Positions 22,509 through 24,242 of a stretch of 64,000 nt of DNA are shown here, piece by piece (position 1 is the stretch's first letter; every line of letters begins with the position of its first letter). Where the stretch lies: the NCBI GenBank assembly GCA_964515475.1, contig CAZEVD010000001.1:90636-154635 (forward strand), given 5' to 3'. The translations under genes were made by a program, and so were the position numbers. Below the pieces are notes generated by a model. The model was not told the DNA's origin. It did not search any database and worked only from the letters and a program-made list of their open reading frames with translations. Origin of the DNA: an uncultured Eubacteriales bacterium. Its GTDB lineage: Bacteria > Bacillota > Clostridia > TANB77 > UBA1234.

Positions 22509-24097
22509 TGAAGTACATATTTGTAACAGGAGGAGTTGTATCAGGATTAGGAAAAGGAATTACAGCTGCATCATTAGGAAGATTATTAAAAAACAGAGGG
22601 TATAAAGTTGCCATTCAAAAATTTGATCCGTATATAAATGTTGATCCAGGAACGATGAGTCCATTTGAACATGGTGAGGTTTTTGTAACTGAAGACGGTG
22701 CAGAAACGGATTTAGATTTAGGACATTATGAAAGATTTATTAATGAAAATTTAACTGTTAATTCAAGTGTTACTATGGGAAAAGTTTATAATAGTGTTAT
22801 AGAGAAAGAAAGACGTGGAGATTATTTGGGAAAAACAGTTCAAGTTATTCCGCATATAACAAATGAAATAAAAGAAAAAATATATAGCTTCAAAGAATTA
22901 GATAAAGATATTTTAATTACGGAGATAGGTGGTACTGTAGGAGATATAGAAGGTTTGTCGATACTTGAAGCAATAAGACAAATAGGATTAGAAAATTCTA
23001 CTGAAGATGTTATATATATTCATGTTACTTTATTACCATATATTTATGGTTCGAATGAAGTAAAGACAAAACCAACGCAACACTCTGTAAAAGAGTTACA
23101 AAGTTTAGGTATAAAACCAGATATAATTGTTTGTAGAACTGAAAGTGAGATAACAGATTCTATGAAGGAAAAACTAGCAATGTTTTGTAATGTAAGAAAA
23201 GAAAGTGTTATTCAAAACATGACAGTTGGAAATTTGTATGAAATACCTCTTGCGTTAGAAAAAGAAGGTTTGGCTATGGAGGTTTGCCATCACTTGAAAT
23301 TAGAAAACGATAAACCTAATAATGAAGCATGGGAAAATATGGTTACTAATATTAAGGAACCTAAAGATTCTGAAATTACAGTTGGGTTAGTTGGAAAATA
23401 TATTCAATTAGAAGATTCGTATATTTCTGTTATTGAAAGTGTGAAACATGCTGGATATGCAAATGGTGTATATACAAGAATAAAATTAATTGATTCAGAA
23501 ACTGTAAATGAGAAGAATATAAAAGAAGCCTTAGAAGATGTTGACGCTTTAATTGTGCCTGGAGGATTTGGTGGAAGAGGAATAGAAGGAAAGATTGAAG
23601 CAATAAGATATGCTAGAGAAAACAAAATTCCGTTTTTGGGAATTTGTTTGGGAATGCAAATGGCAGTAGTTGAGTTTGCAAGAAATGTTTTAGGACTTAA
23701 TGATGCTAATTCAATTGAATTTAGCGCAACAACTTCTAATCCTGTTATTCACATTATGGAAGAGCAAAAACATATTTATAAAAAAGGTGGCACAATGAGA
23801 TTGGGTGCATATGAATGTAAAATTCTTAAAAATTCTTTGGCTAAAAAGTTATACAATAAAGAAACTATATTCGAAAGACATAGACACAGATATGAATATA
23901 ACAATCAATATAGAGAACAAATAGAAAACAGAGGACTTATTTGCAGTGGAACGTCTCCAGATGGTTCACTTGTTGAAATTGTTGAATTGAAAGATCATCC
24001 ATATTTTATTGCATCACAATTTCATCCTGAATTTAAATCAAGACCAGATGAACCAGCACCATTGTTTTTGGGGTTAATTGAAGCTGCAAAGAAGTGA
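22509..24097 (+). CDS. pyrG: CTP synthase (start chosen at 22509; ORF track gives an upstream extension to 22409)
   Basis: [19 protein letters not shown]-terminus. Glutaminase GICLGMQ. RBS AGGAGGG. Confidence 0.95.
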
Positions 24098-24242
24098 TGG
24101 AACGGGGACGCCTTGACGGAACGGGGATGCCTTGACCGAACGGGGACGCCCTCAGTTGGACATCTTTGATAAAGTGTCCAACTGAGGGCGTCCCCGTTCG
24201 GTCAAGGCGTCCCCGTTCCGTCAAGGCGTCCCCGTTCCATCA
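24095..24242. repeat. GC-rich 148-bp palindrome B; each arm holds three direct ~19-bp repeats
   Basis: The left arm has GGAACGGGGACGCCTTGAC-like units three times, ending in CTCAGTTGGACATC. The right arm is its reverse complement with one mismatch. The palindrome includes the pyrG TGA stop at one end and the rqcH stop (TCA on the + strand) at the other. Confidence 0.9.

Follow-up and report, generated by a model that had tools for sequence, protein, structure and literature searches.

A 148-nt palindrome that fills the pyrG/rqcH convergent gap of an uncultured Clostridia bacterium is probably an enlarged inverted doublet of a clade-specific hairpin repeat

In the 64,000-nt stretch of DNA from an uncultured Eubacteriales bacterium that was analyzed here (the window), the convergent gap between pyrG and rqcH is occupied in its entirety by a single palindrome of 148 nt (palindrome B, 24095 to 24242), which raises the question of what such an element is and how it came to include the stop codons of both genes. 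We suggest, with a probability of roughly 0.6, that palindrome B is an enlarged and symmetrized inverted doublet of a clade-specific hairpin repeat, recognizable by the 7-mer GGGGACG, in the slot that otherwise holds the pyrG/rqcH bidirectional terminator.

Repeat finding placed palindrome B at the coordinates that had been proposed from a reading of the sequence alone (the original prediction), with arms of 68 nt each, 99% complementary and 12 nt apart. The left arm (24095 to 24162, + strand) consists of three 19-nt units (24095 to 24113, TGATGGAACGGGGACGCCT; 24114 to 24132, TGACGGAACGGGGATGCCT; 24133 to 24151, TGACCGAACGGGGACGCCC) followed by the inner segment TCAGTTGGACA (24152 to 24162), and the right arm (24175 to 24242, + strand) mirrors it, with an inner segment at 24175 to 24185 and units at 24186 to 24204, 24205 to 24223, and 24224 to 24242; the palindromes themselves and their centers are given without strand. 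Tandem Repeats Finder recovered the proposed triplication, assigning to each arm 2.9 copies of a 19-nt period (with 89% and 94% matches), and the unit can be written as TGAC(G/C)GAAC-GGGGACGCC(T/C); a 19-mer of the palindrome has four matches in the window, against 0 expected. The two arms are identical at 67 of 68 positions, whereas the units within one arm are 84 to 95% alike. The sole asymmetry, also foreseen, is the T at 24128 opposite the G at 24209 (+ strand), which gives a G.U pair in the + strand (pyrG-sense) RNA and an A/C mismatch in the - strand (rqcH-sense) RNA. The center TCTTTGATAAAG (24163 to 24174) is itself a near-palindrome, CTTT-GAT-AAAG, so that the predicted folds leave only about 3 nt unpaired. 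With a guanine-plus-cytosine (GC) content of 61%, against 30% for the window, the element folds at -160.9 kcal/mol as + strand RNA, -157.4 kcal/mol as - strand RNA, and -100.9 kcal/mol as DNA. The z-scores lie between about -23 and -24, and not one sequence in a set of 200 shuffles was equally stable. The description of the whole gap as one hairpin is confirmed and lies far beyond chance.

As had been predicted, the stop codons of both flanking genes are embedded in the palindrome, being the outermost 3 nt of each arm. The TGA of pyrG (CTP synthase, 529 amino acids [aa]; 22508 to 24097, + strand; Pfam CTP_synth_N, 2e-124) occupies 24095 to 24097 and forms the first 3 nt of unit 1, and the TGA of rqcH (NFACT family, 563 aa; 24240 to 25931, - strand; NFACT_N, 1e-118), which reads TCA on the + strand, occupies 24240 to 24242, the last 3 nt of the palindrome. 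The coding ends themselves are native (RqcH ...IIVE and PyrG ...AAKK), and at the same codon positions the relatives have TAA for both genes, with RqcH ending in ...IVE plus TAA in 8 of 8 relatives. TGA terminates only 5 of 50 open reading frames (ORFs) in the window, two of which are those flanking palindrome B, and it is also the first triplet of each 19-nt unit. The rarity of TGA in the window, the TAA codons of the relatives, and the TGA at the start of each unit together indicate that the palindrome overwrote both native stops and that the spacer DNA is gone. The element, on this evidence, continued to grow until it met coding sequence on both sides. Since the unit is 19 nt long and begins with TGA, each reading frame of either strand receives one of the three TGAs of an arm (24095, 24114, and 24133, and their mirror counterparts on the - strand); a dedicated three-frame stop device was considered and set aside, as this pattern is a probable by-product of the 19-nt period.

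The 19-nt repeat belongs to a family of small hairpins recognized in the clade, a connection that, like the terminator slot discussed below, the original prediction did not include. For this comparison, rqcH loci were taken from nine related lineages (RqcH identity of 71 to 88%); loci are denoted here by L and a number, two of which (L001 and L002) belong to a sister metagenome-assembled genome (MAG). The family signature is the core (A)ACGGGGACG(Y)CC, and the basic unit is a hairpin of about 26 to 30 nt in which a left and a right stem strand, differing in sequence from lineage to lineage, enclose a loop that has the core on its 5' side, because the versions found in L008, L005, L018, and L020 share this layout. 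In the gap between the engB-like and ftsH-like genes, which in the window is the site of a second palindrome (palindrome A), L011 has one terminator only and L015 has two, and L008 has the two terminators of L015 plus the 26-nt hairpin CGTCCAA-CGGGGACACCCA-TTGGACG. This singlet corresponds to one arm of palindrome A (GTCCAA-ACGGGGACGTCCTCA-ATTGGAC) and is absent from the same gap in L015 and L011. The hairpin in the same gap of L005 is GTGTCTCAGTT-GGGGACGGACTC-AACTGAGACAC; L018 contains GCACTTT-GGGGACGTYCCTTA-AAAGTGC in four copies, in 5' and 3' gaps, and L020 contains GTCCCAT-CGGGGACGTCCGTCAA-ATGGGAC. In L018, an intergenic repeat of about 55 nt (TAGTTTACATTC...TTGCACTTTTAAGGGACGTCCCCAAAGTGCA) was observed upstream and downstream of genes, at about 3265 to 3310, 3440 to 3500, 7640 to 7690, and 13300 to 13375, and it combines, in this more distant relative, a different stem with the same core.

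Thirteen intergenic cores sit within perfect stems of 6 to 11 bp, built from four or five unrelated stem sequences, and the singlets fold by themselves (z, -3.7 to -5.8). None of the coding GGGGACA sites used as controls has a stem of at least 6 bp, and GGGGACG itself was met at one coding site, within a 7-bp stem in the ftsH-like gene that L008 and L011 share; the corresponding hairpin, AGGAATT-GGGGGACGCGCTCG-AATTCCT (15950 to 15985 in L008 and 15222 to 15257 in L011), is the only within-gene hairpin observed with the core in its loop. The 19-nt repeat of palindrome B is the 5' half of this basic unit, that is, the left stem plus the core.

Furthermore, the interior of palindrome B has the form of an inverted doublet that occurs at other sites. 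The inner 72 nt (24133 to 24204; arm GACCGAACGGGGACGCCCTCAGTTGGACA) are homologous to palindrome A and to the element at L001. Palindrome A (19151 to 19246) is a paralogous doublet that starts right after the stop codon of the engB-like gene and has 31-nt arms, 100% complementary, around a 34-nt spacer; the inner 30 nt of each arm of palindrome B match the arms of palindrome A (GTCCAAACGGGGACGTCCTCAATTGGACACC), with 25 of 31 positions identical to the A arm. In the sister MAG, L002 is a syntenic copy of palindrome A, and a third doublet, L001, has a spacer of 45 nt and is located between divergent gene starts. The three inverted doublets (A, L001, and the interior of B) have 25 to 31 of 31 arm bases in common, their spacers (34, 45, and 12 nt, respectively) are unrelated, and the singlets of L008 and L005 are more divergent than the doublet arms. 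A more distant relative in the window, element C (33247 to 33336; GGGGACAGTCC...), has 44-nt arms that are 93% complementary and covers the last 6 codons and the stop (33263 to 33265) of a glycosyltransferase gene (32279 to 33265).

Among 185,579 species representatives, the 21-nt core shared by the doublets was found in one genome, that of the uncultured Eubacteriales sister MAG (CAYMVI01), at two loci, and a profile search with the arm gave 34 to 37 bits on the arms of A, B, and the sister MAG and nothing else strong. The broad core is more frequent, occurring about once per 8 to 15 kb in 196 to 224 kb of sampled DNA. In about 196 kb of non-redundant clade DNA, analyzed with an order-3 Markov model, GGGGACG/CGTCCCC is the most over-represented 7-mer, with 23 occurrences against 1.5 expected, and GGGGAC[G/A] reaches a density of 1.12 per kb in intergenic DNA against 0.07 per kb in coding DNA (16-fold). 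A scan of the Joint Genome Institute (JGI) metagenomes with GGGGACGYCCTCARTTGGAC returned three single, non-palindromic matches on contigs of 47 to 67% GC, which we consider chance matches and not family members; a scan of viral contigs with the A-type arm and a blastn search of palindrome B against plasmids and phages gave no matches. Rfam, at gathering and at permissive thresholds, returned only sub-threshold models of long-hairpin microRNAs (MIR1858, 99.7 bits against a gathering threshold of 137). On this distribution, the GGGGACG hairpin repeat appears to be clade specific and confined to this group of uncultured Clostridia.

As for the way in which palindrome B reached its present size, the original prediction invoked growth by slippage, and this explanation accounts for one part of the pattern. 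The head-to-tail 19-nt units fit slippage, and slippage in a single arm does occur in the family, since L001, L007, and palindrome A carry one-sided or independent tandem amplifications: the right arm of L001 has 17 nt in 2.1 copies, one unit more than the left arm; L007 has amplified the core as 12 nt in 5.9 copies; and palindrome A is flanked, on its non-coding side, by the unmirrored partial unit ATTTGGAC (19247 to 19254), beyond which a canonical terminator follows (19260 to 19294). The array of L007, (TCGGGGACGTTC)n and then (TCAGGGACACTT)n, lies at 15747 to 15823 between the tex stop and the engB start and shows the core amplified without a hairpin. Slippage does not account for the mirrored variants, which need copying from arm to arm as well. 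The units of palindrome B differ at four positions (4, 5, 15, and 19), and the variants at 4, 5, and 19, not that at 15, are mirrored exactly in the opposite arm. Because the variants are mirrored and the arms are identical at 67 of 68 positions, compared with 84 to 95% for the units, the three-unit arm must have been copied from one arm to the other after the units had diverged, and independent slippage in the two arms is excluded. The copying could have taken place by template switching or by an inverted duplication; template switching is described to make quasipalindromes "perfect or more perfect" (PMC7202029), and its intramolecular form would be the simplest mechanism.

The position of palindrome B can also be interpreted by comparison with the relatives, since in nine lineages one dominant hairpin lies 3' of rqcH. 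Six of them (L007, L008, L015, L016, L018, and L020) have plain bidirectional terminators made of an A-tract, a stem, and a T-tract, with -16 to -23 kcal/mol; L011 has a stem AAAACGGGGACGCCCCTTATT (GGGGACGCCCC) with A/T tracts and -40 kcal/mol; L005 has 28-nt arms, CAAAGGGGACAGCCTTATTTGTACACTA (GGGGACAGCC), and -58 kcal/mol; and palindrome B, with its 68-nt arms, is the extreme of this cross-lineage comparison, at -154 kcal/mol. A/T tracts were noted in the orthologous hairpins of L007, L008, L011, L015, and L016. In both RNA strands, the stable GC-rich stem-loop of palindrome B starts at the stop codons themselves, and contact or overlap between a hairpin and a stop codon is frequent in the clade: element C runs over the end of a coding sequence, and in L008 and L011 a terminator loop contains a stop codon. 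A terminator scan of the pyrG/rqcH gap found no other terminator-like site, so that neither gene has a candidate stop or 3'-end structure other than palindrome B. The tail of the stem on the + strand, UUCAACUAUUAUUG, has fewer than 5 U in 8, and that on the - strand, CUUCUUUGC (CUUCUUUG), has 5 U in 8, which is borderline. Since good U-tracts are lacking, we infer a role as two-way transcription stop or 3'-end structure from the position of the hairpin and from the analogy with the repetitive extragenic palindromic (REP) sequences of Escherichia coli, which act as terminators in 3' untranslated regions (UTRs) and as mRNA stabilizers and whose presence between two convergent genes is correlated with a higher expression of the pair (bioRxiv 10.64898/2026.03.23.713779). 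The gene content beside this hairpin varies between lineages, with an Rce1-like (CPBP) gene between rqcH and pyrG in L008, L015, and L016, and with pyrG missing from the rqcH locus in L007, L018, and L020 and kept in the window, L005, and L011; the hairpin site 3' of rqcH falls at a rearrangement-prone junction.

The same series of orthologous hairpins speaks for an alternative, namely, that no repeat family is involved and that an ancestral pyrG/rqcH terminator was lengthened in situ by slippage, through selection or drift, its resemblance to palindrome A and other elements being due to gene conversion or to convergence of GC-rich stems. The hairpins form a graded series, the stems AAAACGGGGACGCCCCTTATT of L011 and CAAAGGGGACAGCCTTATTTG of L005 look homologous to the outer unit GGAACGGGGACGCCTTGAC of palindrome B, and even the plain stem GCTGAACGGG of L015 resembles GAACGGGG; the low copy number of the strict core also fits. 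However, the same arm of 25 to 31 nt is present at unlinked sites that need no terminator, such as the divergent gene starts of L001 and the positions between two canonical terminators in L008 and L005. Moreover, a site that carries it in one species can lack it in a close relative, unrelated stems enclose a loop core that is conserved, and the 7-mer is over-represented throughout the clade. We therefore consider an origin purely in situ unlikely.

If palindrome B is instead an enlarged doublet of the repeat, its history could be reconstructed as follows. In the lineage of the window, a doublet would occupy the pyrG/rqcH gap, where relatives keep a normal bidirectional intrinsic terminator, and its 19-nt 5' half-unit (left stem plus core, starting with TGA) would then have been duplicated twice in tandem. 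The resulting three-unit arm would then have been copied onto its partner, for which intramolecular template switching at the quasipalindrome is the simplest mechanism. In the process, the TGA of the unit would have taken the place of the native TAA in both genes, and all spacer DNA would have been lost. By analogy, the RNA hairpin of about 70 bp would now be the sole stop or 3'-end-defining structure for both mRNAs and would block antisense read-in.

Several observations weigh against this interpretation. The stem is not followed by a canonical U-tract, and the terminator scan does not list palindrome B; in addition, at 68 bp the stem greatly exceeds the length required for termination, and it would be a substrate for RNase III and, as DNA, a possible target of SbcCD. 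The arms of palindrome B do not fold as singlets on their own (z about 0). In the whole sister MAG, no more than 2 loci carry the strict 21-nt core, and searches of the JGI metagenome, viral, plasmid, and phage collections recovered no copy of the family core. With regard to mobility, no transposase, of the Y1/HUH type or other, was detected among the 17 window ORFs scanned with Pfam, which says little about the rest of the genome, and no target-site duplication is evident when filled and empty sites are compared at the engB gap, where there is only an AT-rich AAGAAA ambiguity. Finally, the unit count depends on one metagenome assembly.

Should the interpretation hold, uncultured gut or environmental Clostridia would have their own population of REP/REPIN-like repeats, recognizable by a conserved loop and in this respect unlike the proteobacterial model. 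One orthologous site would offer a series of stems, from a plain terminator through 20 bp and 28 bp to about 70 bp, with which the effects of stem length and of U-tract loss on termination and on mRNA 3'-end stability in Firmicutes could be addressed. The mirrored variants would represent a clean natural example of arm-to-arm homogenization in a bacterial palindrome, and the overwritten stops would illustrate that such an element can grow until coding sequence halts it on both sides.

A different reading would see in palindrome B selfish or neutral fragile-site DNA that has no role in transcription and acts mainly as a cruciform, a replication-stalling site, or a recombination hotspot. A long, near-perfect palindrome with a tiny center does have the best geometry for a hairpin or cruciform, and the outer edge of palindrome A marks the precise end of a recombination tract common to the window and the sister MAG: the window from about 16500 to 19246 (tex, engB, and palindrome A) is 95 to 100% identical to L002, with a drop at 19246, and the DNA flanking this tract is 84 to 91% identical to L002 on the left and 65 to 70% on the right. 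The tract resembles one of recent inter-species recombination. However, palindrome A need not be the cause of the drop, because a highly divergent and GC-richer block, with an ftsH-like gene, starts at the same point, and sliding-identity comparisons with five relatives revealed no identity breakpoint at palindrome B. Since the gap contains no other terminator, some transcriptional role is also hard to avoid, and a purely fragile-site nature thus appears improbable. The divergent block (about 19250 to 22400) is 65 to 80% identical to most relatives and 84 to 91% identical to L005, and it may be replaced or foreign; its FtsH-like ORF (19309 to 20790, - strand; AAA plus Peptidase_M41) has about 40% GC, against 30% for the window. 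The notion that palindromes A and B are the edges of a swapped 4.8-kb cassette was discarded, as the block starts at A and fades within pyrG and identity makes no step at B.

The GGGGACG core could alternatively be the binding site of a host protein (an uptake-type signal, a nucleoid protein, or a regulator), in which case palindrome B would consist of six sites that happen to pair. It is the top over-represented 7-mer, its loop position is conserved while stems vary, and tandem arrays of the core alone exist in L007. No candidate binding protein was identified, and DNA uptake of a sequence-specific kind is not known in Firmicutes. Uptake-sequence pairs do form terminators, but uptake sequences number at least 1,000 in a genome and are found both inside and outside coding DNA (PMC1852404), whereas the motif reaches a density of about 0.12 per kb and almost never falls within coding sequence; on these grounds, we rejected a DNA uptake sequence and find a binding site in general hardly probable.

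It remains to consider whether the palindrome is real. The exact RqcH and PyrG proteins of the window were found only in the Logan unitigs of one sample, SRR14307642, in which two separately assembled unitigs enter palindrome B, one on the side of pyrG and one on that of rqcH. Each contains exactly 30 bases of the palindrome, identical and inverted, before it stops, as an assembler with a k of 31 does at a genuine inverted repeat. Palindrome B thus breaks k-mer assemblies at the pyrG/rqcH locus, and only the source metagenome assembly gives the count of three units in each arm. Since the unitigs, all from one sample, break inside the palindrome, the comparison of unit numbers suggested in the original prediction was made between species. 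That the palindrome, or its count of three plus three units, is an artifact of a fold-back chimera or of a misresolved repeat is very improbable even for a short-read metagenome assembly whose repeat the Logan k=31 unitigs cannot cross and whose interior is resolved in no second sample, given that both unitigs come from unique flanking genes with identical 30-nt inverted ends, that palindrome B is internal to a long contig, that sister species from other samples have a palindrome at the same site (L005 and L006, from two samples, and L011, from a third), and that the T/G asymmetry and the unit-specific variants are unlike the products of a fold-back chimera.

Some further features of the window were noted. 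A sigma-70-family gene is split into two overlapping ORFs (26102 to 26506, region 2; 26487 to 26798, region 4), and the same split is seen in L020; L008, L011, and L015 have a single fused protein of 230 to 231 aa. In L007, the two halves lie about 5.5 kb apart, with a large serine recombinase between them, an arrangement resembling a "skin"-type intervening element. A GerAB-type spore germination permease in a gerA-like operon is present as two ORFs (41641 to 42135 and 42311 to 42739, - strand), which may reflect a frameshift or a pseudogene, and a very long ORF of 2,117 aa spans 46294 to 52647 on the + strand.

Compared with known systems, several candidates could be set aside. For an integron attC site, the arms are too well paired (67 of 68), the best core sites, ACCGAAC and GTTCGGT, match 6 of 7 positions of RYYYAAC and GTTRRRY, syntenic housekeeping genes flank the element, and there was no sign of an integrase. 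CRISPR, iteron, and LexA-box arrangements do not fit an element with no spacers between its units, a chromosomal housekeeping context, a perfect stem, and GAAC/GTTC half-sites too far apart. A miniature inverted-repeat transposable element was rejected because the engB gap has no clean target-site duplication and no transposase was seen in the window ORFs scanned. The pairs of DNA uptake sequences and uptake signal sequences of Neisseria and Pasteurellaceae resemble the family in being an over-represented short motif present as close inverted copies in terminator stems; different from them, GGGGACG has a density about 10 times lower, is almost exclusively intergenic, and lies in units within larger conserved arms, with no known link to competence.

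Two other comparisons are closer. Like a bidirectional intrinsic terminator, palindrome B is one GC-rich hairpin in a convergent gap directly after both stops, and it is orthologous in position to the canonical terminators of six lineages; different from such terminators, its stem is of about 70 bp rather than 5 to 15 bp, contains both stop codons, and is built from a repeat family, and its U-tracts are absent or weak. Quasipalindrome correction, as described for E. coli and yeast (PMC7202029), accounts for arms identical at 67 of 68 positions with units only 84 to 95% alike and for the mirrored variants, although it is a mutational mechanism and not an element family, and the pattern of variants is what suggests its role here.

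The most extensive likeness is that with the REP singlets and their doublets (REPINs) of Pseudomonas and Enterobacteria, which are mobilized by RAYT transposases (PMC3116915, PMC3337134, and PMC2817692) and whose singlet and doublet architecture was described by Bertels and Rainey (PMC3116915 and PMC3337134). The differences are several. The host is an AT-rich, spore-forming, uncultured Clostridia lineage and not a proteobacterium, and conservation resides in the singlet loop, with lineage-specific stems, while REPs have a conserved stem and a 5' GTAG head; no common tetranucleotide, whether GT[AG]G or another, precedes the stems of A (..ATAG|GTCC), B (..AAG|TGAT), and L018 (..ATT|TGCAC). Whereas classic REPINs exceed 100 per genome, the strict A/B subfamily is of low copy number, with 2 loci in all of the sister MAG. 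REPINs typically flank a single-copy Y1 HUH RAYT, and no RAYT is among the 17 window ORFs scanned with Pfam, a statement that concerns the window only; tandem half-units mirrored on both arms, as in palindrome B, are undescribed for REPINs. Rather doubtful, in our opinion, is the further idea that the GGGGACG hairpins are cis-elements of an undescribed REPIN-like system, in which a domesticated transposase, or another enzyme acting on hairpins of single-stranded DNA, would read the conserved loop and not a stem, the lineage-specific stems would co-evolve, and palindrome B would be an amplified doublet with half-unit arrays left as footprints of the enzyme at the element ends; if true, it would mean a REPIN-type sequence population outside Proteobacteria with another recognition logic. 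Membership in the REPIN/RAYT family, as well as any enzyme-driven mobility, is unproven. The likenesses, on the other hand, concern the core of the REPIN architecture: a short palindromic unit that is over-represented and extragenic (23 against 1.5 for the 7-mer, and 16-fold in intergenic DNA), inverted doublets with a poorly conserved spacer that form one long hairpin, singlets that are more decayed, occasional tandem clusters, presence or absence that differs between close relatives, and locations in 3' UTRs and between convergent genes. Palindrome B is, in conclusion, a local curiosity and not a new kind of system, and it may well work as a REP or REPIN does in a 3' UTR.

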